Of a DNA stretch of 64,000 nucleotides, positions 6,356-64,000 are shown piece after piece. This DNA comes from Raillietiella orientalis (Eukaryota), in assembly GCA_036172245.1 (NCBI GenBank), contig JAYWIR010000035.1, forward strand, positions 2,232,001 through 2,296,000, written 5' to 3'. A program made the translations under genes and the position numbers. Under the pieces are notes generated by a model, which was not told the DNA's origin, ran no database searches, and saw only the letters and a program-made list of their open reading frames with translations. Numbering within the stretch: position 1 is the stretch's first letter; every line of letters starts with the position of its first letter.

Positions 6356-6570
6356 GTTGTCACCCGGGTACGCCCGGGGCGTTTATTGAAAGAACTCTGC
6401 ATAAAGGTGGTACGAGGCCCCACTAACGTTCCCACAACACCGGACCTGTTGGGACGCCGGGACGCAGCCCGGCGTGACGCTCCTCGGCATTGGAGGGGGA
6501 TAGGGATGAAAACAAAAAGAAAAATAAAGATAAGAAAAACAAAAAAAGAGTTTGGAGGGAGAGGAAGGGA

Positions 6571-9500
6571 TCACAATCCACTGGGAGGAGGGCCCATCCT
6601 TCGCAGGATGCCCTCCAGGTCCATCTTCATGCTTCCCAGATGGGGCCATCTCCCAGCTCTATGCATGAAGCAGACCGCATACGGGATGACATCCCTCGCG
6701 TTGGCATCCACTCCTTCGTCGCGAATGTCGCTCCAGGCCGCCACGATGCCCCGGATGCAGCAGAGGGCTGCGAGTGCTGCGGCGGGCTGCAGGGCGTCCC
6801 GCACGAAGAGGAGCCGAAGAACGACTCTGGGCGCGCTGCCCATTGGGAAACCGAGGGTCGTCCCGAACCGTTCCCACAGGGGTCGGAGGTCAGCACAGTC
6901 AACAAGTAGGTAGGGGAGCGAATCCCGCTCCCCGTACCTGGCACACTCAGGCCTTACACTTCCCCGCGTCCAGTGGAAGCGGCGCGCGTTGCAGGGTAGA
7001 CCCCAGTGCAACAGTAGCAGCGCCGAATCTTGCCACTTCAGGGGGAGAAGCCTGGATCCGATTAATATTGGCGGCCAATTCAGGTCATCCGTCGAAATGC
7101 CGAGCAGCTCACCCCAGCGACAAAGTCCACGCGGGAGGGCACTCGGGGACGTGGCATCTGCCAGTTCTCCCATGGTCCAACCGCTCATCTTCTTTTCCTT
7201 GCCTGCGATTCGGCAGGAGACCTGCCACTTTGGCTTGCGGCCACTGGTTAAAGCCCTTCGTAGGAAAGGCAGGGTCGAGGCTAGAGGGGTAGTCTCCGCC
7301 CACGTGCTCCTGGCGGGACACTCCAGAGTAGTCCGCAGTGTGCAGCAGGCGTTGGGCCCGAATAGCAGGCGGTTCCAGTCCGGGGAAGTCTGGAGGTTCC
7401 GCTTGGCCCACGTCGCAACGGATTCCTCCAGCCAGGCGGAGGAGTTGGCGGGGATGCATACCGTCCAGCCGTTGTCTCTCACCAGGGCTTCCATGCGCCC
7501 AAGGAGAAGGCCGCATCTTCTCACCTTCCTGCCGGAGCACAGAAGGTACGACGCGAGTCCATGCGTCCTGGACACACAGCTGGCGAAGATGCGGGCTGGA
7601 ACGCACCAAGGGGTGCTCCATGACTTTGCTGCGATGGCGAGGGTGCGCCAACGCAGCTGTATGTCCAGGCGCTCCAGCGTCAGGAGGCCGAGACCGCCGT
7701 CCCGACGAGGAGCACATAAGTCATCTAGAGGCACACGTGGCCTCCCGCTGCCCCAGAGGGCGATGCGCAGTAGGTCCTTGGTCCTCTTTTTAATGTCACA
7801 TGGGACGGGGCAAACAAAAAGCAGGGAGCGGAGGATGGGAGCCGCGAACGCGTTCCACACCGCGGCCCGTTCCGGCAGAAGGAACTTGCCTTCCAGGAAC
7901 GGGCCGATTGCCAATTCTACCTTTTGGAGACGACCTGACCAGGCTTCTGCGAGGCAGAAGTCCCCCAACGGGACACCCAGGTAGTTCAGGTACCTGTCCG
8001 CGGGGATCCCCAAGCGGATCCAGTCAGGCCGTCCGACCCACGTCGCACCCACCGGTACGACCGACGACTTCGCCTTGTTTACCCGAAGTCCAGTCCCACG
8101 ACTTAGCGGGTCGAAGAAATCCTCGACTGCGGCTGCCGGGGCGGACATGGGCAACATGAGCAGAAGGTCGTCGGCGTATGTTGCTACGGCGGGCGTTCCG
8201 GGGCACGAGCTGGGCAGGGCAGCCAAAGTCACCCTGTACGCTCTCAGCACCAACTCAAAGTAGGTGCTAAAGAGCAGGGGACTGAGGCTATCGCCCTGCC
8301 GTATGCACCGCTGCACCGGCACGCCGTACACCTGTTGGCTGTAAAAGCAGATGTTAAGGATGGCGTTGCGCCAGCAGGAGCGCAGGAAGGAGAGAAGGAA
8401 GGGTGGGAAGCCCATGCGACCCAGGAGATCCAACACTAGCTCCTGGTCAAAGCAGTCGAACGCCTTATGGAGATCGACCGCGATCGCTAGGGCCTCCTTC
8501 CCAGCCCGGGTGTCCATTCCCGGCCCAGCTGGCGGCCCCAAAGTGGGGTTGCCAATCTTTCCGCCAGTTTCATTTAGGCAGCGCTGCACATGGAACCATG
8601 TGCTGGCGAAGAACAGGTTGGCATCCATACTTCGCCCGGGAACAGCGTATGTCTGCTCCGGGCTAATTATGGAGTCTGCCACCTGTCCTAGACGCGAAGC
8701 CCACAGTCCAGCGACCAGCTTGGCGTCCGTATTCACAATTGTGATCGGACGCCAATTGCCTAGGGATCTGAGGTCTCCTCCCTTCGGCAGGAGCCTCACA
8801 CGGGCTGACCGAAACGAGGCGGGAACGTCGCCTTCGTCTCGGATCAGCCCGGTCAACTGGAGCACCAGGGGGGCCAGCTCTGTCGCGAAGCATTGAAAAA
8901 ATTCCTCAGGCAGGCCGTCCAACCTCTGGCGCCTTACGCCTCTTGAGCCTTTTAATACCGGTAGAAAAAGGCTCGTCGAGGCTGATCCTCACCTCCTCCC
9001 CTATTGCCTGGCCTCCATCCGGGAGCAGGAGCCGCGAGGCGTCCCGCTGTGGGGGTGCCCTAGCGTAGAGGGAGGAATAATAATGCCGCACGAGGTGCCT
9101 GATCGCGGGTGGGGCCGATCGCTCCCGGCCCAGGTCGTCCAGCAATCTGGCCGACCCGGATTGCCAGGCTTGGCGCTCGGCCCCGGCTCGATATTCGGCC
9201 AGGGGACGGACATTAGGGGTCCTCTTGTACCGGCGGGCCTGTAAATAGGCCCTATGGTTCCGAGCCCCCTCCCCAAATCCGGGGAACAGGCGGTGCAGGG
9301 GGAACTCCTCGCAGAACTCGCGGACCGACGCCTTGAAGAGGTCCCAATCTTTGAGACTGCGGAGGGTGACGCCTCTCAGGAATTCGCGAAGGTGTTCCTT
9401 CGCTCCTGAGAGCCGCATCCAGTCCCCAGGCAACCGCCACGCCCTGGCCGGGGGTCCTTTATCGCGCGGGCATACCTCGGCGATTAACCTGGAATGGTCC

Positions 9501-10156
9501 GACAGCGTCGACGCAACTTTTCCCCGTTTGCCGACCCGCGAGCACAGGTCTACATCCAGGAAGAAGTGGTCGATGCTGCGGTCCATTCCCCCCGCGTCCG
9601 CCAACAAGTTGCGCGTGCGCATGGCAGCGCACAACTCGTTGGCCGTGCGTTCTTGTGCTTCGGGCTCACCTGACAGCAGACGGAGATTTAAGTCCCTAGC
9701 TATCAAGTGTGCCTTCCGCACGTTCGTATCGGCCAGCCAGTCGCGCTTCAGGGTTTCCAGCAACCTGGTACGGTCTCTGTATCCCCCTTTCCCGCTTGGG
9801 GCGTACACGTTCGTGTCGATCAATTCGAACGAGTCGGACCAGCTGAGAATCAGCTGACCGACCCGACCGTCCTCATCGAAGCGTATGCCCTTCACGGCAG
9901 CGTCGATGGCCGGCTTTACGAAAAACGCGATCCCAAAGGTGTTGCGGGCGTTGCATCGCCAATACAGTCGACCCCCCGCGATCGTCTCGATCTCCTGGAC
10001 GTCTGCCGAGGTGATCACGTGGATCTCCTGCAGCAGGGCCAGGTCGAGCTCACGCAGGGTGTCGGCCGTATCTCGCCTGTTACCGTCGTCGCGCAGCCCG
10101 TTGACGTTCCAACAGGCGGCGCGAATCCGACGGCGACTGGCGAGCCCAGGTGTTAT
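6571..10156 (-). pseudogene. Family C ORF2 (EN-RT-zinc finger), frameshifted
   Basis: ORF 8906-10018 (NVYAP, SDH) and ORF 6571-8922 (VDLHKAFD, IRQGD, YADD, YLGVP). Confidence 0.92.
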
Positions 10157-21088: not shown

Positions 21089-24000
21089 GTTGCCACCCGG
21101 GTACGCCCGGGGCGTTTATTGATAAACTTTACATGCGTGGTAGAAGGCCCCACCACGACCGTAAACACAGGACCTGTCGGGACACCGGGACGCAGCCCGG
21201 CGTGGCACTCCCCGACAGCGAAGGGGGATGGGGATGAGACAAAAAGTAAAATAAAAAGAAACAAACAAAAAGAAGTTGGAGGGCAGGGAAGGGATCACTG
21301 GTCGCTGTGGGGAGGGCCCATCCGTCGAACGAAGCACTCGAGGTCAGCCTGCATATTCCCCAGTTAAGGCCATCCGGCAGCTCTTCGCAAGAAGCGTTTG
21401 GCATACGGGATGACATCCCTCGCCTGTGGACCCACTCCTTCGTTGTTGGCGTCGCTCGATGCCCCCACGATGCCACGGACGCAGCACAAGGCTGCGATGG
21501 CTGCGGCTGGCTGCAGTGCGTCCTTAACGAAGAGGGGCCGAAGAACGTCTCTGGGGGTGCTGCCCGTAGGGAGCCCAAGGGTCGTCCCGAACCGTTCCCA
21601 AAGGGGTCGGAGGGCAGCACAATCCACAATAAGGTGGGGAAGCGACTCCCGCTCCCCGCACCTGGCACACGCAGGATCCACAGCTCCCCTCGTCCAGTGG
21701 AAGCGGCGCGCGTTGCAGGGTAGACCCCAGTGCAACAAAAGCAACGCCGACTCTTGCCCCTTGAGGGGCAGGATCCTGGATTCCTTCATCACCGGGGGCC
21801 ACTTCAGCTCATCCCTGGGGATGGCGAGCAGCTCGCCCCATCTTAATAATCCTCGCGGCTGGACGCTCGGGGTCGAGGCGTCGGCCAGTTCTCCTGTTGT
21901 CCAGCCGCTGATCAACTTCTCGCGTCCCTCGATGCAGCAGGAGACTTGCCACCTTGGCGTCCGGGTGCTGTGAAGTGCCCTCCTTAGGAAGGGTAGCGCC
22001 GTAGCTAGGCAGGTCGTCTCTGCCCACGTGCATCTTGCTGAACTCTCCAGGAGATTCCGCAGCGTGCAGCGGGCGTAGGGGCTGCATCGGAGACGATTCC
22101 ACGTTTCGTGGCTTCTCTGGTTGACTACTGCCCACGTTCCAATATCCTCCTCCAGCCAAGCGGGGGAGTTGGCGGGGCAGCAAACCATCCAGCTGTTCTC
22201 CTTGGCCAATGTTGCCATGCGCCCGAGCAGTAGGCCGCATCTTCGCATCTTCCGGCCACGGCTCAGAAGAAAAGACGCGAGTCCATCGCACCGGGACACA
22301 CGGCTGGCCAGGAGGCGGGCCGGAGTGCACCAAGGGGTGCTCCACATCTTCGCTGCGATGGCGAGGGTTCGCCACCGCAGCTGCTGTTCCACGCGCTCCA
22401 GCGTCAGGAGGCCAAGACCGCCGTCCCGACGCGGAGCGCACAAGTCCTTCAGTGGGACTCGGGGCCTCCCTTTGCCCCAAAGGGCGATACGGAGGAGGTC
22501 CTTCGTCCTCTTCTTGGATTCCACGGTGGGGGGGCAAACAAAAAGCAAGGGGCGGAGGATGGGGGCCGCGAAGGCGTTCCAAACCGCGGCCCGTTCCGGC
22601 AAGTGAAACTTGCCTTCCAGGAACGGTCCGATCGCCGTCTCGACTTTTTGGAGGCAGCTGGACCACGCTTCCACAGGGGAGTAGTCCCCCAACGGCACAC
22701 CAAGGTACTTGAAGCACCTCGCCGTGGGGATCCCCAGACGGACCCAGTCCTGCTGCCCTCCCCACGCCGCACCTATTGGCACAACCGACGACTTCGCCCT
22801 GTTAACCTGCAGTCCGGTCCCGCGGCTGAGCAGATCGAAGAAGTCTCCGACCGCCTTCGCCGGAGTGGACATTGGCAACAAAAGCAGAAGATCGTGGGCG
22901 TACGCTGCTACGGCAGGCGTGCCGGGGCACGAGCTCGGCAATGGGGTCAAAGTCACCCTGTACGCTCTCAGCACCAACTCAAAGTAGGTGCTGAAGAGCA
23001 GGGGGCTGAGGCTATCTCCCTGCCTTATGCCCCGCCGCACCGGCACGCCATACACCTTTTGACCGCTGGAAGAGACAGTAATTATCGCATTCCGCCAGGA
23101 AGAGCGCAGGTAAAAAATCAGGGAGGGTGGAAAGCCCATGCAACCCAGGAGCTCCAAGAGGAGTTCCTGGTCTACACAGTCGAACGCCTTGTGGAGGTCG
23201 ACTGCGAGCGCTAGGGCCCCCTTCCCCGCCCGGGGGTCCCTTCCCAGCTCGGCTGGAGGCCCCAATGTGGGGTTGCCGACTTTCCCTATCCCTTTCTTTT
23301 CTCTTCTCTGCAGGTGCACCCATGTGCTTGCGAAGAAGAGGTTGGCATCCATACTTCGACCAAGAACAGCATATGTCTGCTCCGGGCTAATTATGGATTC
23401 TGCAACCAGCCCCAGACGCGAAGCCCATAGCCCGGCAACCAACTTGGCGTCCGTATCCACAATCGTGATCGGACGCCAGTTCTTTAAATCTCTGAGGTCT
23501 CCCCCTTTCGGAAGGAGCCTCACTCTGGGTGACTGAAACGAGGCAGGAACATCGCCTTCGTCTCGGATCAGTCTTGTCAGCTGGAGCAGGAGGGGTGCCA
23601 GCTCTTCCGCGAAGCTCTGGTAGAACTCCGCGGGCAAGCCGTCTTCTTCTGAAGCTTTGCGTTTCTTGAGCCTTTTGATACCGGCGAGAATTTCGCCGGT
23701 CGTAAAAGGCTCATCGAGGCTTAACGACTCCTCCTTTCCTATTGCCGCGGCACCATCCGGAAGCAAGAGCGGAGAGGCATCTTGATCCGGGGGCGCCCTG
23801 GCGTAAAAAGAGGAATAATAACTCCGCACAAGATGCCGAACCAACGCCGGGGACGAACATTGCCGGCCCTGGTCGTCCAGCATGCTGGCTGACCCGGATT
23901 GTTAGGCTTGGGGTTCGGCCCTGGCGCGGTACTCGGCCAGGCAACGGACATTAGGGGTTCTCTCGTACCTACTAGCCTGTGAATAGGCCCGATTGTTGCG

Positions 24001-24430
24001 AGGACCCTTGCCGAATCCGGGGGGCAGGCGGTCCAAGGGGAACTGCACGCAGAACTCCCGGACCGAGGCCTTACAAAGGTCCCAATCCAGAAGACTTTGG
24101 AAGGTGACGCGTCTCAGGAATTCGCGAAGGTGTTCCTTTGCACCTGAAAGTCGCGTTCAGTCCCCCGGCAGACGCCACTCCCTGGATGGCGGTCCCTTGT
24201 CGCGAGGTTGCATCTCGAAAATGAGCCGGGAATGATCCGACAGCGTCGACGCAATCTTCCCCCGTTTGCCGACTCGTGAACACAGGTCAGCGTCGACAAA
24301 GACGTCGTAGATGCTGCGGACCATTCCCCTGTCAACCGCGAACAAGTTGCGCGCACGCATGGCGGCGCACAACTCGTTCATCGCGTTCTCTTGTGTTCCA
24401 GGCTCACCTGTTAGCACGCAAAGATTGAAT
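21089..24430 (-). mobile_element. Family C element (from EN FN motif to 3' end)
   Basis: ORF 21364-23883 (839 aa; RT motif reads YAHD; CARCGERESLPHLIVDC); hairpin 3' end at 21089-21120. Confidence 0.9.
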
Positions 24431-32450: not shown

Positions 32451-32454
32451 CAGA

Positions 32455-38372: not shown

Positions 38373-38379
38373 GCACTCG

Positions 38380-40690: not shown

Positions 40691-40901
40691 AGCCTTGAGG
40701 GCGGCCGGCTGCAACGAGGCAGCCAGCTCCTCCGCGGCGCGCTCGAAGACGACGTCATCGAGCGTGGGCACGATGAAGGGCGCCGCCGCCTCGCTCCCCT
40801 CCTTGTTGACTTTGTCAACGGAGGGTTGAGCAGGGGCAGCAGCGAGTTCTTTAGCGCCGCATTCGTCGATGGCGGGAATACGCTCGACGACAACGGTGCA
40901 C
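40691..40901 (-). mobile_element. Family D ORF1 fragment (downstream flank of the A insertion)
   Basis: Reverse complement of 4890-5100 (CTVVVERIP...AAEELAASL). Confidence 0.85.
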
Positions 40902-47805: not shown

Positions 47806-47825
47806 GCTCGACGCTCCAGAGTCTC

Positions 47826-49750
47826 TCTGTAAACTTGGTACGCAGGGACGTTTATTTTTTCAAATAAACTTATATAATGTATGACTGGACCAGTAGTCCC
47901 TCCACGCCCTGGAAACATTCAGCCTGCCGGGCTACCGGTGCACAGACTGGCGCGGTCGACCTCGGAAGCAGAGGATACAAAAAATCAAAGAAAAAGAAAA
48001 TAAAGAAATAAACAAAACCAATGAGGGAGCGGGAAGAAATGATTGTCTGCTGGGAGGGTCCGTCATCCTCTGAAGGATGCCGGCAAGCTTTCGCTGAATG
48101 CTGGATTCCAGATGGGGCTATCGCTTCGGCATCCTCAGGTAAGGGACGGCGTAAACGGTTGCGTCCCTGTCGCTGGACCCTCCCGTCGCATTGCTTGATC
48201 CCACGACGAATCCGCGTGGGCAGCACAGGTCTGCAGGGTGTCACGGACAAAAAGGGGGCGCAAAGCGTCTCTGGGGTTGCCTATGGGGATCCCCAGGGCT
48301 GCAGCAAAGCGTTCCCACAAGGGACGGAGGGCAACACAATCCACTAACAGGTGAGGGAAGTATTAACTCTCCCTGCACCTGACACAATTTGGGTTGACTC
48401 CCCCCCACGTTCAGTGGTGTCGGCGGGCGTTGCAGGGGAGGCACGAATGCAACACCAGGAGTGCCGACTGTTGCCACTTCATGGGGACGATGCGCGAGTC
48501 CATGAGCACCGGGGGCCACTCGAGATGTTCCTCTGGAACATCCAGTAGCTCTTCCTAGCGCAAGAGAACATTTGGTGTGGTCCTCGGGGTCGCAGCGTTG
48601 GTGAGCTGACCCGTTCACCAATCCTCGATTTTCTTCGCCCTGCTGGAGATCTTGACAGTAACCTCTCATTGTGCCGCGACGTCGATGCCCAGATGTTCCC
48701 GTAGGGTAGGCAGTACCGCAGCAAGGGAGGTTTCTTGAGCCCACGCTCTCCTTAGGGGATATTCGATGATTTCTCGGAGCGTTCGGTGGGCGTACGGCCC
48801 AAACAGAGCTTTCGCTCGTGTTGCGGGCTCTGCTCCTGAGTCATCGCCCACGTGCGGACGGTTTCCTGCAACCAGGCAGGACCGTTGGCGGGGCGTACTA
48901 GGATCCGCTCCGAGTTGGTCTTCGCGAGCTTGGCCGCCCTTCGAAGCTGAAGTCCGCAGTGGCAGATGTTGCTTCGGAGTGCAAAGTAGGACGAGAGTCC
49001 CGCATTGCCGGTGGCCCGCTCGACGAGGAGACGTGCAGGGAGACACCAGGCGGTGCACCAATTTTATGACATAAAGGCAACACTCTGGAAATGGAGATGA
49101 AGCTCCAGCCGCTCCAGAGTCAGGAGGCCAAGAGCGCCGTACCGACGCGGACCGCGCAAGTCCGCGAGACGGACTCAAGGCCTCCCTCTGCCCCAAAGGC
49201 TATCCTCAGGAGATCCTTCGTCCCTTTCCTAGATTCCACTGAGGGGTGGCAAACAAAAAGCAAGGGGCGAAGGAGGAGTGCCGCAAAAGCGTTACACGCG
49301 GGGCCCGTTCCTGCAAGTAGAACCTGCCGCCTCGGAACGGGCCGATAGCCGTCACTTCTTTTTGGAGGCAGCCGGACCACGCTTCCGCAGGGGAGTAGTC
49401 CCCCAACGGCACACCAATGTACTTGAAGTACCTCACCGTGGGGATCCCCAAACGGACCCAGTCCTGCTGCCCTGCCCACGCCGCTCCGACTGGCATTACG
49501 CACGACTTCGCCCTGTTCACCGTCAGTCCTGTTCCACGACTCAGCAGGTCGAAGAAGTCCTCGACCGCCGAGGCCGGGGTGGACATAGGCAGCAGCAGCA
49601 GAAGATCGTCCGCGTACGCCGAAACCGCAGGCGTACCGGGGCAATCGCACGGCAGGTGCGCAAGAGTCTCCCTGTACGCTCTCAGCACCAATTCGAAAAA
49701 GGCGCTAAAGAGCAGGGAACTCAGGCTGTCTCCCTGCCGTATGCCGTATG
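47826..49750 (-). mobile_element. Family D 3' fragment (RT motif B to 3' end)
   Basis: ORF 49206-49691 (YADD); 3' UTR matches 15222-15436. Confidence 0.87.
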
Positions 49751-49753
49751 CCG

Positions 49754-51238
49754 GACGCGGGGCCTCCGATTGCCCAAGAGGTATTTTCTAATGAAGCCAC
49801 TTGTCCTTTGTCGAATTTTGGGAGGTATTGTGCGTACAAAAAGCAGGGGGCGAAAGAGGGGGGTCGCAAAAGCGTTCCACACCGCGGCCCGTTCCTGCAA
49901 GTAAAACTTGCCGTCTCGGAACGGGCCGATCGCCAACTCCACCTTTTGTAGACAGTCGGACCAGGCTTCTGCAGCGCAAAAGTCCCCCAACGGAACTCCA
50001 AATTACTTGAAGTACCCGCCCGTGGGGATCCCCGAGCGGATCCAGTCGGACCGTCCTGCCCGCGACGAGTCCGAAGAAATGATTGACGACTTCGCCCTGT
50101 TTACCTGGAAGCCCGTCCCACGGTTCAGCAACTTAAAGAAATCTTAGAGCGACGATGCCGGGATGGACCCGGAAAGCAGAAGCACAAGGTCGTCGGCATG
50201 GGCCGACACGGCAGGCGTGCAGGGACAGCAGCTCGGCAGGGTTGCTAAAGTCTCCCTGTATGCTCTCAGCACCAACTTAAAGTAGATGCTGAAGAGCAGG
50301 GGGCTCACGCTGTCACCCTGCCGGATGTCGCGACCAACCGGCACGCCGTACACGTGGCGGCTGCTGAAATGGATGTTAATTAGCGCGAAGCGACAGCAAG
50401 AGCGCAGGTACGCCAGGAAGACGGCCGGAAATCCCAAGCGTTCCAGAAGCACCAGGAGGAGCCCCTAGTCGACGCAATCGAAAGCTTTACGCAAATCGAA
50501 CGCGACCGCAAGGGCTCCGGGCGCCACATCCTCCTCCCGGCTTCCCTCCGCAAGGTCAGTGAAGAGTCCAGGACTCTCCTGACCTAGCTGAGCCCTGTTG
50601 CAACTGACAGAAGGTGCTGGCGAGGAACAGGTTGGCCTCCATGGTTCGTCCGGGAAAAGCGTAAGTCTGTTCCGTACTGACCACGGATTCCGCTACCCGT
50701 CCAAGACGCTCAGCCCAGAGTTTAACGAGCAACTTTGCGTCCACATTCTCCACAGTGATAGGACGCCAGTTGCCAACGTTGCGCAACTCTCCTCCCTTAG
50801 AGAGGAGACGTACTCTAGCTGACCGGAACGAGTTGGGGACATCCCCGCGTTCACGGATCAGAAAACACAATCTGAGCACCAGGGCAGCCAACACTGCCGC
50901 AGAATGTTGGTAGAATTCAGCTGGCAGGCCGTCTTCCCCTGGTGCTTTGTTTTTTTTGAGTTTTCTGATGGCGGAGACAATCTCCGTCATCGTAAATTCC
51001 AGTTCGAAGGTGTGACGTTCCTCCTTCCTTAGCGCGGGAGCACCCTCTGACAGCAGACTCTGCGCAAAACGGCGCTTTGGTGGTCACTTGGCGTAAAGGG
51101 AGGAGTAGAAATCCCGCAAAATGCAACAAACCTACGCTGCAGAAGAGTCCTCCTGGCCTTCTTCGTCCAATAAGCAGGCAGACCCGGATTGCCAGGCCTG
51201 CCTCTCAGCTTAAGCCTTGATTTCCGCCAGGCGACGGT
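49754..51238 (-). mobile_element. Family F RT fragment (inverted duplicate of 33612-35096)
   Basis: Translations nearly identical to ORFs at 33731-35100. Confidence 0.88.
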
Positions 51239-51255
51239 CGTTCTCCTTTGCCAGG

Positions 51256-52395
51256 CAACCCTGGCAAAGGAGAACGCCTGGATGGTTTGTGGCCCCGCCA
51301 ACTTCTCCGCTTGGCTGGAAGAGACTTTTGGCACCTGGACCAAGCAGAAACAGAGGTGCGAAGACCGGATGAACTGCCTACGAGTCGGCTTTTACGCCCG
51401 CCGAACTCTTTGTGAAATTATTGAACTTCCACCGAGTTGCACGTGGGCGGAAGGCACACCCCTTGTTACGGTGATGCCCTTCCTCCAAAGGGAGCTTCAT
51501 GGAAGCCGGAAGCCAAAGTGGCAAGTCCGCTGCCGTATCGCAGGCAGAGAGAAGATGATGATCGGCTGGACCATGGGGGAGTTGACAGATGCAGCGACCC
51601 CTTGTCTCCAGCCGCGTGGATTAAGAAAATGGGGCGAGCTGCTCGGCATCCGATTGGATTACCTGAAGTGGCCCCCGGTTCTACTTGGATCCAGGATTCT
51701 TCCCCTGAAGTGGCAAGAATCGGCGCTTCTGTGGCTGCATTGGGGTCTACCCTGCAACGCGCGCCGCCTCAACTGGACGCGAAGAAGAGTAAATCCTGTG
51801 TGTGCCAGGTGTGGGGAGCGGGAGTCGCTCCCCCACCTCTGAGTTGAATGCCCTGCCGTCCGGATTCTTTGAAATCGTCTTAAAACGGTCCTTGGGATAC
51901 CCGATGCTGGCAATGTTGGATGTGTCTACAGTCTTGTGTTCGCGCGGGATATCCTCAGTCCAGCCGCAGCCCTGGCAGCACTTTGCTGCATTCGTGGTAT
52001 CGTGGCATCCTGGAGTGATGCCGAAGATGAAGGCTGCATCGTGAGGGAGGTCATCGAGTATGCTTCTCGCTTCCTGCAGAGAGCTACCCGATGGCCCCAT
52101 CGAGGAAAACTGAAAATGCAACTAGAAGGCATCCTGCGAAGGAGGGGCCCTCACAGCAGTTTTCTGTGATCCCTTCCCGGCCCTCCAAACTTTTTTTTGT
52201 GGTTTGTTTTTCTCTTTTATTTTATTTTTGTTCTCTCCCCCATCCCCATCCACTGCCGAGGGGAGCCACACGGAGCTGCGTTCCGGTGTCCCGGCAGTTC
52301 AGGTATTGCGTGGCCATCAGTGGGGCCTTGTACCACGTTCTGTATTGACTGTTGAAATGTTTTTAATAAACGTCCCGGCGTATCCGGGTGGAATC
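51256..52395 (+). mobile_element. Family C 3' fragment (inverted duplicate of 32462-33594)
   Basis: ORF 51189-51842 has the same translation as 33008-33661; ends CCCGGCGTATCCGGGTGGAATC. Confidence 0.88.
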
Positions 52396-54615
52396 GCCGA
52401 ATCCCCGGGGCAGACGTTGCACAGCGAAAAGTTCGCAAAACTCCCGGACCGAGTCCTTAAATAGGTCCCAATCCGCGAAACTCTGGAGTGTGACGCCTCG
52501 CAGGAATTCGCGATGATGTTCTTTCGCTACTCATAGACGCGTCCAGTCTACTGGCATACGCCAATCCCTGGATGGCGGTCCCTTGTCGCGCGGGCGCATC
52601 TCCAATAATAACCGGGAATGGTCTGACAGCGTCGATCCAAGTGTCCCTATTTTTCCGACCCGTGTGCACAGATCGTCGTCGAGGAAGACGTGGTCCACGC
52701 TGCTGAAAATCCCGCTTATTTCTGTGAGCAAGTTGCGCGCGAGCATGGCGGCGCACAACTTGTTGATCGTGTTCCCCTATGTTCCCGGCTGATCTTAGAT
52801 CCGGCGGACGTTGAAATCCTTCGCTGGCATATGCGCCTTTCGCACGTCCGTTTCCACCAGACATTCGCACTTCAAGGTTTCCAATTACGCGTTGCGCTTT
52901 TGGTATCCTTGTTTACCGCTAGGTGCGTACACATTGGTGACGATGAGGTCGACCGATTCGGATTATCTGAGAGTCTGTTGGCCGATTTCTCTGTCGTCCC
53001 CAAAGCGCATGCCCTTCACGTACGCATTAATGGCTGGCTTTAGAAACAACACGACCCCGCAGGTGTTGCGGGCGCCGCATCGTGAGTACAACCGCCCCCC
53101 CGCGATCGTATCGATCTCCTGGGCGTCTTTTGCTGTGATCACGTCTATCTCTTGCAAAAGCACCAGGTCGAAATCTTGCTGGGTTGCGGCTGTGTCCCGT
53201 CTGTTTCCGTCATCGCGCAGCCCGTTGACATTCCAACTGGCCGCGCGGATCCGACGGCGACAGGCGAGTCCAGGTGTTATCCCTGGGAACCTGGCGGTGG
53301 GGCTCCCGCCACCTTTTGGGGCGAGTCGCTGGACGGGGTTGGCGTCTTGCCCACCAACTCCCCATCCTGCTTACGTGCCGACGTCTCCGGCTGCTCGTGC
53401 GAAGGGGGTGTTGCTCGTACCTGTTGGCTCACATCCATTGGTGCGGGTGGTCCAGGTTCGGCGGTTTCAGGGAGCATTGCTGCCCCTGCTTACCCTCCTG
53501 CATTAAAGTAGCCTTCTCGTCGGCTTCCGCACATATGTGATGCCCGACTTGGGCTTCCACGCTGCCACCCTCTGGTTCCTCGTCCAGTGCATCCCCCTCG
53601 CGCGGAGGCGGAAGGCACCATCGGGGTTTCTGAAATTTTCGCTCCGCTTTCCGTGGTGATGCTTCAATAGAGGATGCACTTCCGGCCTCCCTATCCGACT
53701 CACCTGCGGAAGCCACTTTAACCGATGCCGGCCTACGTAACCCCTTTCGCGAAGGGTTCTTGCGTTCGGCAAGCGTTGCCGCAAGCTCCTCGGCGGCCTT
53801 CTCGAAGGCTGCGTCCTTGGTTTCGGCGATGTTGTCGTCCGGCTGGCCCTCTCCGCAAGCAGGGGGTGGGTTTTTGCGCGCATTCGTCGCGGCGGGAAAA
53901 TCGATCGAAGCCGTATCGCCTCCGGTGGTGTCGGCTGGAACGTGACTGCGCTCCAGCGTAACCGTGCATTTTCGGAGAGTTTTTACGCGCGAAACAGGAT
54001 TGAGCTTATGTTCCGGCCGCTGCCTTTTCTTTTTTCTTCGAAACATGCTTGTCCTTTTTCTCTTTTTTGGCTTTGACTAGCTGGAGCCCTGTTCTCCCTC
54101 TGCGGTTTCGGGAAGATTTTTCTCCGATGCCGCGCTTGCAGCTTGGGTTATTGGCAGCTTTTCTCGGCCAGTTTCACGGTTTCCCAATTTCTCTTTCCCC
54201 GCGCGTTTCCCTTGCGCCTTTTTGGCGGCCGAGGAAATTGGGGTGGGGCGTTTAGGGCACACGCGACGGACGTGTCCCTTTTCCCCGCACAAGTAGCATA
54301 CGATGTTTGGGCACCTCTTTCGGATGTGTCCGACCGCATCGCAGTAGTGGCAATACCGTGGTTTGACCGCATACCAGACGTCTATTGGTTCTTCCGCGGC
54401 CTCAAGCTTGTAAGGAAGCTTCGCTTGGTCTTTTGGGGTTACACGTGCCTCGGCGAGGCCCCCGAAGTGGCGTCCGTAGCCCTCAAATATTGTGGGTTTC
54501 GGCTACAGCGGGTGTACGTCCCCGTATTTACGTAGCTCACCTTTGACGGCAGTGCGCGTCAGGCGCTTACATATTCCTGTGAAGTGGACCACTACCGAGT
54601 GGTCCATTGACACAA
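52396..54615 (-). mobile_element. Family C-type degenerate element: 5'-truncated ORF1 + EN up to GFG
   Basis: Knuckle remnants near 54256-54360; AAEELAATL; EN fragments 52963-53163 and 52531-52758; ends QRLPRGFG. Confidence 0.82.
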
Positions 54616-54639
54616 GGAAGAAACAGTCCGACATTCGTC

Positions 54640-56745
54640 GTTATCATCTGGGTACGCCCGGGGCGTTTATTTGTAAACTCTACATGCGTGGTACGAGGCT
54701 CCACCACGGCCGCAAACACAGGACCTGTCGGAACACCGAGACTCAGCCCGGCGTGACACTCTCCGACAACAAAGGCGGATAAGGATAAGACAAAAATAAT
54801 AATCAAAAATGGAAACAAACAAAAAGAAGTTGGAGGGCAGAGAAGGGATCACTCGTCGCTGTAAGGAGGGCCCATCCGTCGAACGAAGCCTTTGAGGTCT
54901 GTCTGCATATTCCCTAGTTGGCGCAATCGGACAGCTCTTTGCAAAAAGCGTTGGGCATAAGGAATGACATCCCTCGCCTGTGGACCCACTTCTTCGTTGT
55001 TGGCGTAGCTGCATGCCGCCACGATGCAACAAGCGCAGCACAAGGTTGCGATGGCTGCGGCTGGCTGCAGTACGTCCTTCACAAAGAGGGGCCGCAGAAC
55101 TTCTCTAAGGGTGCTGCCCGTAGGGAGCACGAGGGTCATTCCGAGCCGTTCCCAAAGTTGTCGGAGGGCAGCACAATCCACAATAAGGTGGGGGTGCGAC
55201 TCCCGCTCCCCACACCTGGCACACGCAGGATCAACAGCTCCTCTCGTCCAGTGGAAGCGGCGCGCGTTGCAGGGTAGACCCGAGTGCAACAGGAGACACG
55301 CCGACTCTTGGAACATGAGGGGCAGGATCTTGGATTCTTTCATCACCGGGAGCCACTTCAGCTCATCCATGGGGATGGCGAGCAGCTCGCCCCATCTTTC
55401 TAATCCTCGCGGCTGGACGCTCAGGGTCGTGGCGTCGGCCAGTTCTCCTGTTGTGCAGCCGCTGATCAACTTCTCGCGTCCCTCGATGCAGCAGGAGACT
55501 TGCCACCTTGGCGTCCGGCTGCTGTGAAGTGCCCTCCTCAGGAAGGGCAGCGCCGTAGCTAGGCAGGTCGTCTCTGCCCACTTGCATCTTGCTCGACTCA
55601 TCAGGAGATCCCGCAGCGTCTAGCAAGCGTAGGGGCTGCATCGGAGACGATTCTACGTTTCGTGGCTGCTCTGGTTAACCACTGCCCACGTTCCAATTTT
55701 CTCCTCCATGCCAGCGGGGGAGTTGGCGGGCAGCAAACAATCCAGCTGTTCTCCTTGGCCAATGTTGCCATGCGCCCGAGCAGTAGGCCGCATCTTCGCA
55801 ACTTCAGGTAACGGCTCAGAAGAAAAGACGCGAGTCCATCGCACCGGGACACACGGCTGGCCAGGAGGCGGGCTGGAGTGCACCAAGGGGTGCTCCACAT
55901 CTTCGCTGCGATGGCGAGGGTTCGCCAGTGCAGCTGCTTCTTCAAGCGCTCCAGCGTCAGGAGGCCAAGACCGCCGTCCCGACGCGATGCGCACAAGTCC
56001 TTCAGAGGGACTCGGAGCCTCCCTTTGCCCCAAAGGGCGATGCGGAGGAGTTGCTTTGTCCTCTTCTTTGATTCCACGGTGGGGGGGCAAACAACAAGCA
56101 AAAGGCGGAGGATGAAGGCCGCGGAGGCGTTTCAAACGGCGGCCCGTTCCAGCAAGTGAAACTTGCCTTCCAGGAACGGGCCGAACGCCGTCTCGACTTT
56201 TTGGAGGCAGCTGGACCACGCCTCCGCAGGGGAGAAGTCCCCTGACGGCACACCGAGGTATTTGATGCACCTCACCGTGGGATCCCCAGACGGAACCAGT
56301 CCTGCTGCCCTGCCCACGTCGCTCCTACTGGCACCAGCGACGACTTCGTCCTGTTACCCTGTAATCCGGCCCCACGACTGAGCAGGTCGAAGAGATCTCC
56401 GACCGCCTTTGCCGGGGTGGACATTGGCAACAAGAGCAGAAGATTGTCGGCGTACGCTGCTACGGCGGGCGTGCCAAAGCACGAGCTCGGCAAGGAAGCC
56501 ACAGTCATTCTGTACGCTCTCAGCATCAACACAGCGTAGGTGCTAAAAAGCAGGGGGCTGAGGGTATCTCGCTGCCTTATGCCCCGCCGCACCGGCACGC
56601 CATACACCTTGTGACCACTGAAAGAGAAGGTAATCATCCCATTCCGCCAGCAAGAGCGCCGGTAGGAAATCAGGGTGGGTGCGAAGCCCATGCGACCCAG
56701 GAGCTCCAAGAGGAGTTCCTGGTCTACACAGTCGAACGCCTTGTG
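54640..56745 (-). mobile_element. Family C element, 3' part (downstream of the B insertion)
   Basis: Starts HKAFDCVDQ; YADN; CARCGERESHPHLIVDC; 3' UTR matches 21089-21300. Confidence 0.88.
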
Positions 56746-56756
56746 CGTTCTAGGGT

Positions 56757-59700
56757 GGACGTGTTTTTTCGGTTCTCCTCGTGCCAGGAAGTCTCCCCCA
56801 GTGCAAGCGTCGTGTGGTTCGGTGGTCGATCTGGCAGCGATGCCTGACGCGACCACCAGGGATGGCCAGGGGGCAGCGGCAACGCCGCTCCCAGAGGCGC
56901 TGGAGAGCCAGGGGGCGGCGGCAACGTCGCCCCCAGAGTCGATGGAGGTGGGGGCATCCGCCCCCACAGAATCGTTCCCCGCTGCAGCGCGGGCGTGGAG
57001 CGCCGTTGTGTCGGCGCCATCGCCTGCAGCCGCGGCGGAATTGTCGGCCTATGTAGAGGAAGGGTACAACCCCTCAGTGTTCTACAAGGTAGGCAATTTA
57101 TATTCTATAGAGAGCGCGCGCGCCTTCTCGAATGGCATGCGCGATCTCGATGTGAAAGAGAAGGAGCTCAGCGCTATGACCATCCGCAGCGGGGGTCTGC
57201 ACGTTGATGTCATCTGCAAACATGCAGAGCTGTCCCAACGACTGCTTAAAACCCCCGTTGTGATGGGGACGCGCAGGCTCCTCCCCACTACGGCGGACCG
57301 CAGCATGGTGGTCCACCTGTTAGGCGTCACCGCGCGAATGCGCAAAGAACAGGTACGCGCCGCTTTGGAACAGTTCGGAACGGTCCACGCGCAGTGGACG
57401 AAAGTAAGTCCTTTCGAGGACTACACGGGGCTGCAACACGGCCTCACTGCTGCGCGCGTGACCGTTCGGGAGGGCTGCACTCTTCCCCACAAACTGGTGG
57501 TCGAAGGCGAAACCGTCGACCTCTGGTATGTGGGGAAGCCGAAATACTGTGGCTTCTGCAATGCGTCGGGCCACCTCAAAAAGAGGTGTCCCAATGTGCA
57601 GTGCCAAGTATGCGGCACAATGGGCCACACGAGGAAGGTGTGCCCAAAAGCAGCAGTGCGGGTGGTTTCCAAGAGAAGCCTTAAAAAGCACGCCCGGCTT
57701 TCTGCAGAAAACGCTGGCGGCGAAAGCTGCCGCGAAGGTTGTGCCACCCGCGCCCAAGACCCAGGCCGCACCCGAGACCCCGGCGACCAACGCCGAAAAA
57801 GTTGAGGGAGCCGGCCTGGAGACTGGGTGGCAAGTGGCAACGGCCAAAAAATCAAAGAAGGAGAGGAGGATGGAATAGAAAATCGCCTACCAACAGAAGA
57901 AGAAAGAGCAGGGTAGCGCGATAATTAAAGAGTGCAGCGTCGTTGTCGAACAAGTTCTCGATGTTGCCGAACGGTGCCGGAAAGAACTCGCCGCTACCGA
58001 CGACCTCCCCTCTGTTGACACAGTCAACAGCGAGGGGAGCGAGCCGGCGGCGGCGTCCGTCATCGACACCACCATCGATGACGTAGCCTTCGCGCGAGCC
58101 GCGGAGGAGCTGGCAGCCTCGTTGCAGCCAGAATTCTCCAAGGCTGGCAAGAAGGCCGTAAGGCGTCCGGCCTCCCCTCAGGAGTCCCCCACTTCCGACC
58201 CCGAGGTGGAGGCCGGATGCGCAGCCTCCGTTTCTACGGCACCGCGCAAGAAGGCTGGACGTAAGTCCACAAAGCCAAGGAAGCTCGTCTCCCCCGTCGA
58301 AGGGGAAGAGATGGCTTCCGCAAGCGAGGGTGCCATGAGCGTGGGAAACTCTCGGGACCCGTCGTCCGAGAGACTCCCACGCGCGGACACGGAGGGGATG
58401 GAGGGGGTGGAATCCGAACAGGTGCCTCAGGTGCCTGAGAAGGCCGAAACCCCCATGGACATCATGCCCGCCTCGCAAGGAGGGCTCCCCCACACCTTAA
58501 TCTTCCCAGCAGTAATGCCGGGAATCTCCTCCCGCCGTCGTCTGCGCATCGCCGTTTGGAACGTGAACGGCATGACAGACGCCGGCAGGAGACGAGACAT
58601 ATCCGCCCTTCTGGAGTCCTACGACCTTGCGCTGCTGCAGGAGATCCACGTGATCTCTGCAGAACAAGCGCAAGAGATCGAACGGATCTGCAGAAAGCAG
58701 CTCTGGTACAGGTGTGGGAGAGCAAAAAGTTGCGGTGTCGCCTACCTGCTTCGGCCAGCCGTCGAGGCCGCGGCTCGGGGCGTGCGGTTCGACGATCACG
58801 GTCGTGTCGGCCAGCTGACTCTCAGGTGGTCCGATTCGATCGATCTGATCGTCACGAACGTGTACGCACCGAGCGGCAAGGACCCGATCACCAGGAGGGC
58901 GAGGAAAGAGTTTTTCCTTGCCCTCCGGCGAGACTGGCTGACCAAAGCAGGCGTGCAGTATGCCCATCTGGTTGCAGGCAATTTCAACGTTCGCCTGAAA
59001 CCAGATGGGCAGAATCCTGAGCGTGACCTGGTCAACGAGGTGTGCATGGCGGTGCACACCTGTAATTTGTTGGCCAGTGCACCGGGGATGGAAGACAGCA
59101 TTGACCACGTGTTTCTTGACGAGAACCTGTGACCTCGCGTGGGCAGGCCCGGCAAGTTACCGTGCGAGCTGTCCGACCATCGCCCTCTAGTCCTCGAGAT
59201 CCATCCGCGCGACAGGGGCTCCCCCTCGTCAGCGTGGCGACTCCCAGGGGACTGGCTGAAGCTCCCGGACACGGCGGAACATCTCCGCACGTTCACACGG
59301 AGCTTTAGGCTGCGGACACTCCAGGATTGGGACCGCTTCTAGCGGTCGGTCCAGGAGTTCTGCGACCAGTTCCCTCTGCACCGCCTACCTACGGGTTTTT
59401 AGACCGGGGTCCGTAACGAACGAGCCTACCTGCAGGCCTGTCGTTACGCCACGACCCCCGACATCCGCAAGCTGGCGGAATACAAAGCGGGAGCCCAGAG
59501 GCAAGCCTGGCAGTCCGGATCGGCGAGCTTCCTGGACGATCAGGGCCAGGAGCACTCTGCACCTGCCCAAATCCGCGGCCTGCTGCGGAGTTACTACTCC
59601 TTCCTGTATGCCTTGGCACCTCCAAAGAGGAACGTCTCACGACTCCTGCTTCCGGAAGGCGCTCCAGCGATCGGGGAGGAGCAGAGAAAGACCCTCGACG

Positions 59701-62310
59701 AGCCTTTCACGATGGACGAGATCCTCTCGGCCATCGGAAAGCTCAAGAGGCGAAAGGCTCCAGAGGAGGACGGTTTGCACGCGGAGCTTTATCAAACTCT
59801 CGCGGCTGAGCTTACCCCCCTGGTACAGCAACTCAGCTTGCTGATACGCAAAACAGGTGACGTTCCCGCCTCGTTTCGTTCGGCAAAGGTGCGGCTCCTC
59901 CGGAAGGGAGGAGACCTAAGGAGCATGAACAACTGGTGTCCCATCACAATATTGAATGCGGACGCCAAGTTGATGGCTAAGGTTTGGGCAGAGCGTCTGG
60001 GACGGGTTGCCAACATCTTCATCATCCCGGAACAGACATATGCTGTTCCCGGGCGAAGCATGGAGGCGAACCTGTTCAACGCTCCCACCTGGCTAGAGCT
60101 CCAACATGAAAGGAGATTGGTGCGCAGCCGGAATTCCGGTGCGTACGCCGGCAAGGAGTTGAATGGTCGGTTGGGGGAGGGAGCCCTTGCGGTCGCAATC
60201 GACTTGCCAAAAGCATTCGATTGCGTCGACCAGAATCTCTTTCTGGAACTTCTGGAACGCTTGGGCTTCCCGGCCTCATTAGTAACCTATCTGCGCTCCT
60301 GCTGGCGCGATGCGATCATCAATGTTACTTTCAGCGGGCAGACCGTGCACGGCGTGCCGGTGCGGCGTGGGATCCGGCAGGGAGACAGCCTGATCCCCTT
60401 GCTCTTCAGTACCTACTTTGAGTTGGAGCTAAAAGCGTACAGGGGAACTCTGGCGCACCTGCCGCACGACTGTGCCGGTACGCCGGCCGTTTCAGCATAC
60501 GCGGACGACCTTCTGCTGCTGCTCCCTATGTCCACCCCGGCTGCGGCGGTCGAGGAGTTCTTCGACCTGCTGCATCGGGGAACCGGACTTACGGTGAACA
60601 GGGCGAAGCCGTCCGTGATGCCAGTTGGTGCGGCGTGGGCAGGGCAGCAGGACTGAGTCCGTTTGGGGATCCCCACGGTGAGGTACTTCAAGTACCTTGG
60701 TGTGCCGTTGGGGGACTACTCCCCTGCGGAAGCGTGGTCCGGCTGCATCCAAAAAGTAGAGACGGCTATCGGCCCGTTCCGAGGCGGCAGGTTTTTCCTG
60801 CCTGAACGGGCCGCGGTTTGGAACACGTTCGCGGCTCCTCTCCTCCGCTCCCTGCTTTTTGTTTGCCGCCACAGAGAGGATCAAAAAGCGGACGAAGGAC
60901 CTCCTCCGTATCGCCCTTTGGGGCAACGGGAGGGCCCGAGTTCGCTTTAAGGACTTGTGCGCTCCTCGTCGGGATGGTGGTCTGGGCCTCCTGACGCGGG
61001 AGCGGCTGGAGCTTCAGATCCAGTTCCGCTTTTCGGCACTCTTTCCAGAGTTGTGGTGCACCTGTTGGTGCGTCCCTACACGTCTCCTACTCCAGCAAGC
61101 CACCGGCAAGTCGGGACTGACGTCGTTTCTTGCACTACGTCGCCGCGTCAGCCGATGCGGAATGCAGCTACGGAGGGTGGCTGCGCTTTATCGGAAAAAC
61201 CCAGGATTGCTCACCTGTCGCCCGTTTGACGGTAGTGCCTGGTTGCTGGAAACCGTTCAAAGGTGGGGACAGTTCGGCATGCAACGCTCCCAACAGGAAC
61301 GAAGGTTCCTGTCTGGGGGTTACAGAAGTTGCACGCTCCGCGAGATCCTGGAGGATCCAAAGAAGAGAGCGTGGGCAGGAAGAACCCCCCTCGCTGCTGC
61401 GCTGCCCTCCCTGATGGAAGATCTGGACAGCGATGTTGCGGCGAAGTGGGTGGTTACAGAAACAATCTCCGGAAAGGAGAAGAAGATAGGAGAGTGGAAG
61501 ACGGGCCAGTTAACAGACGCTGCGACCCCGAGTACGCCTCCCAATGGACTTCTGCGCTGGGGCGCGCTGCTCGATGTTCCCATTGAACATCTGAAGTGGC
61601 CCCCGGTGCTCATGAACACTTCCGCCCTCCCCTTAAAATGGCAGGAGTCGGCTATCCTGTTGCAGCACTGGGGACTCCCCTGCAACGCCCGCCGACACCA
61701 CTGGACCTGGGGAGCGGTGGACCCAAATTGCGTTAGGTGTGGGGAACGGGAGTCCCTCCCCCAACTGCTAGTGGATTGTTTTGCCCTTCGGCCCCTTTGG
61801 TTTCGCTTTGCCGCGGCCATCGGAATCCCCTGCGGCAACCCCAGGGACGCACTGAAAGCCCTCTTCGTTGCCGACGCCCTTCGGCCAGCTGCCTCGTTAG
61901 CAGCTTGGTGCTGCCTACGCGGGATCGTCACCGCTTCGAGCAAGGCTACGGGAGGACAACGCGACCAGAGTGCCATCCAGCACGCCTCCCAGTTCCTGAG
62001 GAGGGCGTCCCGATGGCCCCACCTGGATCCAGGAATACAGAAAAAGCTTGCCGGCATCCTGCAAAGGATGCAACGGCCCCACCAGCAACTGTGATCCCCT
62101 CCCTTACCCTCCCAACTTTTCTTTTCTTTTTTGTTTTGTTTTTTGTTTTCCCCCCTTCCCCCTGCCGCCGTGGTGGACCGTACCCGTCTTCGAACCGGTG
62201 ACCCGGCAGGCTCTGTGTTTCTTCGTGCGTGGCTGGAGCAATGGTCCAGCCACCGCACGTCTTTGTAAAAGTTTATTTTACAATAAACACCCCGGCGAAA
62301 TCCGGGTGAA
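56757..62310 (+). mobile_element. Family B full-length element with target-site duplication
   Basis: 5' GGACGTGTTTTTT; ORF1 56840-58515 frameshifted; ORF2 58515-62094 with stops (WNVNG, YADD, CVRC); 3' AATAAACACCCCGGCGAAATCCGGGTGAA; flanked by AGTCG(A/G)ACGCCTTGTG. Confidence 0.93.
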
Positions 62311-63563
62311 AGTCGGACGCCTTGTGGAGATCAACTGCAAGAGCTAGGGCCCGCTTCCCCGCCCGGGGGTCCCTTTTCAGCCCGGCTGTTGGCCTTAATG
62401 TGGGGTTGCCGACATTCCCTATCCCTTTCTTGTCTTTTCTCTGCAGGTGCACCCTTGTGCTTGCGAAGAAGAGGTTGGCATCCATACTTCGCCAGGGAAC
62501 AGCACAAGTCTGCTCCGGGCTAATTTCGGATTCTGCCACCTGCCCCAGACGTGAAGCCCATAGCCCTGCTATTAACTTAGCGTCCGTATTCACGATCGTC
62601 ATCGGACGCCAGTTCTTTCAATCCCTGAGGTCTCCCCCTTTCGGAAGGAGCCTCACTCTGGCTGACCGAAACGAGGCGGGAACATCGCCTTCGTCTCGGA
62701 TCAGCCTTGTCAGCTGAAGCAACAGGGGTGCCAGCTCTTCCGCGAAGCTCTGAAAGAAGTCCGAGGGCAAGCAGTCTTCCCCTGGAGCTTTTTGCCTCTT
62801 AAGCCTTTTGATACCGGCGAGAAATTCGCCTGTGGTAAAAGGCTCGTCGAGGCTTTCCAACTACTCCTCCCCTATTGCCAAGGCGCCATCCGGAAGCAAG
62901 CGCCGAGAGGCGTCTCAATCGGGGGGCTCCCTGGCGTAAACGGAGGAATAAAAACTCCGCACAAGATGCCGTACCGACGCCGGGGACGAACATTCCGGCC
63001 CTGGTCGTCCAGCAAGCTGGCCGACCCGGATTGCCAGGCTTGGCGTTCGGCCCCGGCGCGGTACTCGGCCAGGCGACGGACATTAGGGGTTCTCTCGTAC
63101 CTACGAGCCTGTAAATAGGCCCGATGGTTGCGAGCACCCTCGCCGAATCCGGGGGGCAGTGGATCCAGGGGGAACTGCTCACAGAACTCGCGGACCGATT
63201 CCTTAAAAAGGTCCCAGTCCTGGAGTTTCCGGAGCGTGACACCTCTCAGGAATTCGCGAAGGTGTTCCTTCGCACCTCAGAGTCGCATCCAGTCCCCCGG
63301 CAAACGCCAATTCCTGGATGGCGGTCCCTTGTCGCGAGGCCGCATCTCGAAAATTAACAGGGAATGGTCCGACAACGTCGACGCAACCCTTCCCCGTTGG
63401 CCGACCCGTGAACACAGGTCAGCGTCGAGGAAGACGTAGTCGATGCAGCGAACCATTCCCCTCTCACCCGCGAACTAGTTGCGCGCACGCATGGCGGCGC
63501 ACAACTCGATCATCGCGTTCTCTTGTGTTTCTGGCTCACCTTTTAGCAGACGGAGATTGAAAT
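62311..63563 (-). mobile_element. Family C element, 5' part (EN FN motif to RT motif A); continues at 56745
   Basis: ORF 62273-62602 ends ALAVDLHKA; colinear with 23190-24430. Confidence 0.88.
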
Positions 63564-64000
63564 TTATCACGCAGTCACGCCGGGGCGTTTATTAATAATA
63601 ATAAACTGGTCAGGGACAATGTCCTTAACCAACAGAACGACAGAGAACATAGAAAAATTACCGGCACGCAGGCCTGGTAAACAAACCGCTCGCAGCGTGG
63701 AGGGAATGAGGGGACACAAACAAAAATGTAAAACAGGAGGGAAGGGTAACGGGTTCTTGGTTAGGCTCCGTACTCACGGGGATTTAAACGATGAGCACCT
63801 AAAAGGTTCCGGAGCCTATGGGGACGCGTGTGCAAAAAGAAAATACAAAATTAGTTTCTAGAGGGTAGGGCAATGATCACCGGGTTGGCCGCTGCTGAGG
63901 GTGTGTAAACCGGCGGTGTATTGCGGCGAGATTCCTTTTTGTCTCCTCTGTCAAATGAGGCCATCTAGCGGATGCTCCCATGTAGAAGGATGCTTTGCTG
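63564..64000 (-). mobile_element. Family E 3' end (runs off window)
   Basis: Near-identical to 15778-16210 (offset 47786). Confidence 0.88.

Follow-up and report, generated by a model that had tools for sequence, protein, structure and literature searches.

Element B is a long interspersed nuclear element (LINE) of 5,565 bp that lies, in antisense orientation, within the reverse transcriptase (RT) motif A of another LINE, the C-type copy C54k. Both were found in a 64-kb stretch of the Raillietiella orientalis genome (assembly GCA_036172245.1, contig JAYWIR010000035.1, positions 2,232,001 to 2,296,000 of the forward strand), which is called the window here and whose own numbering is used throughout. 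B occupies 56746..62310 on the + strand, with boundaries taken from paralog alignment. Its ends are exact, it is flanked by a duplication of 15-16 bp of host sequence, and its removal restores the host reading frame without a gap. As a whole, it is highly probable that B is a full-length, coding-dead, L1-superfamily-like element of the apurinic/apyrimidinic endonuclease (APE) type, which entered the older C54k by target-primed reverse transcription (TPRT), likely at a short nick motif. The nested insertion is real and ordinary for its kind. The original prediction had interpreted it correctly as a target-primed insertion into motif A of an older element, as empty-site paralogs and the gap-free excision support.

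The target-site duplication can be read directly from the window. Its left copy, AGTCGAACGCCTTGTG (56730..56745), and right copy, AGTCGGACGCCTTGTG (62311..62326), are identical at 15 of 16 positions, exactly as predicted, and a direct-repeat search pairs them at 94% identity with a spacing of 5581. The right copy differs from the left by one A>G change. The duplication extends no further on either side, as the left flanks are C versus A and the right flanks C versus G. The reverse complement of the 16-mer encodes H-K-A-F-D. By our own arithmetic, a 15/16 match at two fixed places has a chance of about 1e-8, and the boundaries were set independently by paralog alignment.

The host is split into two parts, both on the - strand. 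The 3' half of C54k (54640..56745) begins within the RT at motif A and includes the rest of the RT, the C-terminal domain, the 3' untranslated region, and a tail GTTAT (54640-54644, + strand), and the 5' part (62311..63561), delimited by paralog alignment, reaches to a junction with an A-type 3' end at 63562. Self-comparison of the window recognized an uninterrupted paralog, C21k (21089..24429, - strand), with an 845-aa open frame at 21364-23901, as the empty site. In this comparison, 21083..23193 matches 54634..56745 (89.8% identity) and 23178..24874 matches 62311..64000 (84.4%), and the two matches share exactly 16 bp (23178-23193), i.e., the paralog at 21083-24429 has a single copy of the 16-mer, identical to the left copy of the duplication. 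A second, more distant paralog (6356..8466 / 8454..9688) reveals the same break with a 13-bp overlap. The original prediction held that the two host parts are colinear with 21089-24430. After in-silico excision of 56746-62326, the rejoined host and 21083-24429, each 3347 bp long, aligned at 89.1% identity, with six gap columns and none of them at the joint, so that this claim stands. The joint reads ...VDLHKAFDCVDQ... and the frame continues as ...GKRALALAVDLHKAFDCVDQELLLELLGRMGFA; the minus-strand frame is unbroken across it (...LAVDLHKAFDCVDQELL...). In a profile alignment, the joint falls on IDAEKAFD of human L1 ORF2p (...ISIDAEKAFDKIQQ...), the counterpart of DLHKAFD, a stretch which we take to be RT motif A with the first catalytic aspartate. 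At least three contigs of X1, the one public run with words in common with the window (share 0.21), depart from it at 56745 and continue as GAGATCGACTGCG, as the uninterrupted copies do; this run is possibly the window's own source and therefore gives no independent support. The X1 junctions were read from 6 of the 118 loose contig ends of this run.

B is structurally complete. No long terminal direct or inverted repeats were identified at its ends in a repeat search of 56650-62420, either as long terminal repeats or as terminal inverted repeats. Its 5' end (56746..56768, + strand), defined by comparison of 5' ends, consists of an 11-nt leader, CGTTCTAGGGT (56746-56756), and the start motif GGACGTGTTTTT (56757-56768). 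The start motif recurs at each of the five 5' ends detected among the window elements (12510, 38372, 40683, and 47805 on the - strand and 56757 on the + strand), and in each a variable leader of 5-11 nt (5-10 nt in the other four) precedes the conserved GRACGT motif. The CTAGGGT portion of the B leader resembles CTAGTCGGA of the copy at 40683. The original prediction placed eleven extra bases between the left duplication copy and GGACGTGTTTTT; their location is right, but the presence of such leaders at all five ends speaks against calling them extra, and they are probably a variable 5' leader. The 3' end (62282..62310, + strand) is composed of AATAAAC, the hairpin CCCGG-CGAAAT-CCGGG, and TGAA, without poly(A), and terminates in ...CGAAATCCGGGTGAA. 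Its architecture recurs at 12 other 3' ends, so that all 13 in the window have AATAAAC, a hairpin, TG, and a short family-typical tail of 2-6 nt with no run of A. The terminal hairpin was predicted in four of the five 3' ends that were folded.

All coding parts of B are on the + strand. ORF1 (56840..57805) starts at an ATG, stops at a TGA, and encodes 321 aa. Two CCHC knuckles lie close to its C-terminus, where the zf-CCHC match (E 0.0045) falls short of the Pfam threshold, and a segment of 42 bp is tandemly duplicated at 56860-56943. The N-terminal part of ORF2, in frame 3 (57879..59132), bears the AP-endonuclease domain (Pfam Exo_endo_phos, E 4.1e-9) and runs to an in-frame stop at 59130. 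The RT domain follows in the same frame at 59403..60656 (Pfam RVT_1, E 3.2e-14), with stops at 59340 and 59400 upstream and another at 60654. The C-terminal part, in frame 1 (60760..62094), has a cysteine motif that weakly resembles zf-RVT (Pfam E 0.0082, short of the cutoff). Relative to the intact paralog frames, the in-frame stops of ORF2 are thus 59130, 59340, 59400, and 60654, and tblastn with intact paralog ORFs revealed a change of frame close to 60856-60890. Four stops within the frame and one or more frameshifts leave B unable to code; the description of B as full-length in the original prediction applies to its structure, and not to its coding capacity. ORF1 and ORF2 are in different frames in B, and in a single continuous frame in the copy at 18489-20195 (+). 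Both there and at 11036-12406 (-), a continuous open frame joins ORF1 to the beginning of the endonuclease part. Because of this continuous frame, ORF1 and ORF2 of intact members may be made as one polyprotein.

The order of endonuclease and RT along the + strand, the absence of terminal repeats together with the 16-bp duplication, and a second element in the window with a 10-bp duplication all agree with an APE-type LINE. So does 5' truncation with common 3' ends, as 13 3' ends were found against five full 5' ends, with C28k, C32k, B-like5k, and B-like47k truncated. A 3' poly(A) tail, expected for the L1 superfamily, is present at none of the 13 3' ends. Among solved structures, human L1 ORF2p is the closest to the RT (E 1.5e-33), versus 1e-14 or weaker for R2 proteins, and the best PDB matches of the endonuclease are exonuclease III and the L1 endonuclease, both weak. 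The closest cluster in the ESM Atlas carries the automatic name 'Transposon TX1' (score 0.97) and serves as a lead only. In a comparison with 5.8 billion clustered proteins, an unnamed protein from a metagenome reached 65-70% identity, and no other exceeded 30%. A HMMER search run exhaustively over 1.84 billion representatives found 133 proteins at E<=1e-30, of which the metagenomic protein, a 132-residue fragment (70%), and one protein 35% identical (E 1e-98) stand out. Named protein matches come from Phytophthora, Chara, Rhizopus, fishes, and a sponge. A metagenome scan with a degenerate 3'-end pattern gave eight loci, all unrelated, with bacterial-looking flanks and no tblastn match to the element proteins. 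A search with an RT alignment of four sequences gave two distant matches (25-33%) on short contigs of metagenome-assembled genomes among prokaryote genome contigs, and no match among viral contigs. As L1 ORF2p is the top structure match and close protein relatives are few, the lineage is, judged by sequence, L1-like and poorly sampled. The L1-superfamily-like affiliation of B is tentative and is drawn indirectly from the best structure matches and the Atlas cluster name.

The surroundings of B are almost entirely of the same kind. According to matches to three reference elements or to the B proteins, 94.4% of the window is LINE-derived, and the reference-element map distinguishes at least three families (A; B and B-like; C), which are 65-78% identical to each other and nested both ways round. 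The closest relatives of B, B-like5k and B-like47k, are 77-78% identical to it and are inserted at a different site. C6k, a full-length C-type element on the - strand (6356-12519), interrupts a B-like copy (4890-6355 and 12520-15435) and is flanked by a perfect 10-bp duplication, GGGATTTGGG (6346-6355 and 12520-12529). The empty site for it is supplied by B itself at about 59399. C6k is a second clean nested insertion, with the same mechanism at work in the region. A 515-bp tandem duplication (82% identical; 10536-11050 and 11054-11568) is located in the ORF1 region of C6k.

Insertion sites were used repeatedly in this window. Five of six C-type 3' ends abut, antisense, one alignment column in the endonuclease-RT linker of the host ORF2, at 6355/6356, 21088/21089, 28641/28642, 32461/32462, and 52395/52396. 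In host sense the site reads ...CCNGGATTCGGC^, also written ...GGATTCGGC^, and codes for ...LPPGFG. The five events at this hot site involve four different hosts and one 13-nt stub, and five further copies of the site are unoccupied. Inserts C28k and C52k are 90.8% identical and their hosts 65.1%; for C6k and C21k the values are 77.9% and 68.1%, and for C21k and C28k 72.7% and 78.5%. Because the relatedness of hosts and of inserts is incongruent, these junctions are to be regarded as independent hits and the C-type as site-selective; the same incongruence rules out duplication of a ready-made composite of host and insert. The stub, TCCAGATGTCGGC (32449-32461), separates C32k, at its 3' end, from the 5'-truncated C28k and equals the host copy at 28629-28641 at 11 of 13 bases. 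The closest relative of C28k (87.5% identical) diverges exactly at this stub, which would be the trace expected of a second hit at the same nick, C32k and then C28k. B-like5k and B-like47k (87% identical) both precede AGAGACTCTRGAGCGT, a C-type ORF2 site some 80 nt away from the hot site (15435/15436 and 47811-47834). At the latter, a 16-nt stub (47811-47826) is followed by the complete 5' end of another element, E47k, at 47810, which suggests serial insertion at one nick, B-like47k and then E47k. A 3' transduction as the source of the two stubs is less likely, since the 5' end of the next element directly adjoins each of them and is complete in one case. C54k has the sole C-type 3' end outside the hot site (54634-54660). 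Beyond it lies GACGAATGTCGGA, part of the ORF1 of the adjoining element; this sequence agrees with the hot-site target GCCGAAATCTGGA at nine of 13 bases. The H52k flank GACGAATGTCGGA was considered as a hot-site stub and rejected, as it aligns with ORF1 sequence of paralogs.

How B came to be in motif A can be explained in several ways. An assembly chimera, or recombination or gene conversion between repeats, is conceivable in a region so extremely repetitive, where two near-identical inverted duplications (97.3% and 98.9%) can mislead assemblers. Such events would not yield a 16-bp direct host duplication at the exact ends of a complete element, nor a gap-free, in-frame restoration of the host, and the ends of B are the conserved 5' and 3' termini of its family; this explanation is therefore extremely improbable. 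Strict specificity of B for the coding sequence DLxKAFD of other LINEs, already flagged as a single observation in the original prediction, has somewhat more in its favour. The target is the most conserved RT stretch, near-unchanged in at least three families of the window, the related C-type elements are site-selective, and the closest Atlas cluster takes its name from Tx1, whose group is target-specific. B proper, however, occurs once in the window. The 16-mer has seven matches there versus 0.66 expected by chance, and five copies with at most two mismatches are unoccupied (17965, 23178, and 26625, exact; 8454, one mismatch; 30734, two mismatches). Furthermore, none of about 14 other RT copies in the window is interrupted at motif A, and the closest relatives of B are elsewhere, at AGAGACTCTRGAGCGT. 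On these grounds a dedicated KAFD target is unsupported for B, the KAFD codons as such are probably not recognized, and strict specificity is quite unlikely.

A real insertion at a random target, without any motif or nick core and into a LINE only since the whole neighbourhood is LINE, is a more serious alternative, but still a doubtful one. It agrees with the LINE content of the window, with the one occurrence of B, and with the shortness of the shared GNCGA sequence, which was noticed after the fact. It does not agree with the sister families, which reuse sites with nucleotide precision, including the two stubs, nor with the observation that all three elements ending in GGGT[GA] off the main hot site (B, C54k, and A41k) bear GNCGA at the junction. 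This sequence is present at target position 0 or +1 in 7 of the 13 3' junctions (B, C21k, C28k, C32k, C52k, C54k, and A41k), representing four distinct loci, with a background of 0.0064 per position and 816 occurrences in the window. In insertion orientation, the targets start with (A)GTCGA for B, GCCGA for four hot-site events, and GACGA for both C54k and A41k, equivalent to TTCGAC(T)^, ATTCGGC^, and ATTCGTC^ on the nicked strand. That related endonucleases nick after TCGNC has about an even chance of being right; if so, B would be in the A-F-D codons because GCG-TTC-GAC contains this core.

The preferred explanation, TPRT at a short nick motif, would then proceed as follows. The B endonuclease would nick the host sense strand just past ...GCGTTCGAC(T), within the A-F-D codons of motif A, and the freed 3' OH would serve as primer for reverse transcription of the B RNA from its 3' end (...CCGGGUGAA). 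The other strand would be cut 15-16 nt off, and repair would yield the duplication. The site most likely harbours a short nick motif, GNCGA when read in insertion orientation and TCGNC^ when read on the nicked strand, in local DNA that is almost all LINE. Several points weigh against this explanation. Apart from its post hoc recognition, GNCGA has low information and depends on which terminal bases are assigned to the tails, and it is missing at six of the 13 junctions (C6k, the two B-like, and three A-type). The window also has no second copy of B proper for comparison. In addition, the duplication begins with AGTC, which resembles the C28k tail GAGTC, and a 12-bp duplication plus four bases of microhomology between tail RNA and target would be an equally good reading. 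A broader proposal, put forward only tentatively, is that the window is part of a LINE-only island, possibly centromere-like as with ZeppL, made by at least three diverged L1-like families of a lineage nearly missing from public protein data, each homing with single-base precision and mostly antisense to a conserved set of codons of its own within sibling ORF2. The targets would be the ...LPPGFG linker for the C-type, a point about 80 nt upstream of it for the B-like copies, and the AFD codons of motif A for B. Related endonucleases would cut TTCGRC-type sites, and read-through 3' tails may anneal to the nicked target, an idea known from work on R1.

Other junctions and duplications were recorded in the window. 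At the 5' junction of the truncated C32k there is a 16-nt perfect inverted repeat, GTTCTCCTTTGCCAGG / CCTGGCAAAGGAGAAC (33575-33610), which could be a 5' inversion of the twin-priming type. An inverted duplicate with 98.9% identity (32453-35096 and 49754-52403) terminates exactly at a C-type 3' terminus; its 5-nt tails differ (GCATC versus GAATC), and so do the flanks. It looks like a retro-copied chimeric transcript of antisense host RT and a truncated C element, but the two flanks of the 49754-52403 copy come from different families. The second inverted duplication (1-5100 and 40691-45780, 97.3%) is composed of an A-type element and 210 bp of a B-like endonuclease fragment, and its boundary at 40691 is the 5' end of another C-type copy. 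A-type 3' ends, with tails ATAAAT or AAAAAA, meet the C-type in sense orientation at one C position (15776, 24430, and 63562). Because one pair is about as diverged in its A part as in its C part (94.9/93.1%), the three junctions may be copies of one chimeric A+C unit retrotransposing from the C 3' end; they may also be repeated hits. Another element has its 5' end at 38372-38385, where it adjoins the upstream half of a C-type copy close to this C position. An open frame of 530 aa at 36451-38040 (-) has an N-terminal divergent ORF1, 32-35% identical to that of B, while its C-terminal part of about 360 residues matched no Pfam family and no B protein. A contig of run X1 departs from a B-like copy at 58678 into the reverse complement of an A-type 3' end, i.e., an antisense LINE, and the flank of this junction, ATCTCTTGCG, resembles the A24k flank AATCTTTGCG.

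With its clean duplication, empty-site paralog, and complete element, B is a nested LINE insertion of textbook quality, and its junctions support taking the other junctions of the window as real retrotransposition events. The reused target bases around it are a more interesting lead than the insertion of B itself, as insertions of related LINE families into one another's ORF2 can be seen here, dated and at nucleotide resolution, to fall repeatedly on the same bases. If this were true genome-wide, it would offer a tractable case for the acquisition of target specificity by APE endonucleases, an account of the growth of LINE-only islands like those forming algal centromeres, and a poorly sampled L1-like lineage for LINE phylogeny. 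Mutual targeting of the most conserved coding motifs, parasite in parasite, would be a safe-haven strategy of which no example was found in the literature searched. Likewise, text searches, with most subscription journals and supplements outside their scope, returned no account of multiple LINE families that target, in antisense, fixed codons within the ORF2 of one another.

Known systems resemble the window in part. Human LINE-1 shares TPRT, a duplication of 10-16 bp, and 5' truncation with the elements described here, and its ORF2p is the best structure match for the RT and a weak one for the endonuclease. The window elements differ from it in having no poly(A), CCHC knuckles in ORF1, low identity, and another nick sequence, that of L1 being TTTT/A. 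Sequence-specific APE-type LINEs such as R1, TRAS/SART, and the Tx1 group are well described (PMC1919474, PMC4640811, PMC7265360). They also combine an APE endonuclease and target selectivity with precise junctions and short duplications, but their targets are multicopy host genes, telomeres, and microsatellites, while here they are coding sequences of sibling LINEs. The Cnl1 element of Cryptococcus is comparable in its tandem re-insertion at the same site, seen here for C32k then C28k and for B-like47k then E47k. Cnl1 is, however, subtelomeric, 3.4 kb long, and a single family, whereas the window elements are 5.6-6.2 kb long, belong to several families, and are inserted mostly antisense within ORF2 codons. 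Zepp, an L1 LINE of green algae, targets existing copies of itself and so builds nested clusters that mark centromeres in Coccomyxa, as ZeppL does in Chlamydomonas (PMC8226300; bioRxiv 10.1101/2025.03.28.645958). The LINE-only islands of Zepp/ZeppL in Chlorella, Coccomyxa, and Chlamydomonas, described there as grown by nested insertion with frequent 5' truncation, have their counterpart in this window, which is 94% LINE and likewise expanded by insertion into existing copies. No named protein match came from Chlorella, Coccomyxa, or Chlamydomonas, and identity is about 36% at most if one metagenomic protein is left aside. Zepp bears a poly(A) tail, unlike the window elements, which end in a hairpin without one, and here at least three families, 65-78% identical, target one another, mostly antisense, at fixed bases. 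The self-targeting arrays of Zepp and Cnl1 are the closest known behaviour.

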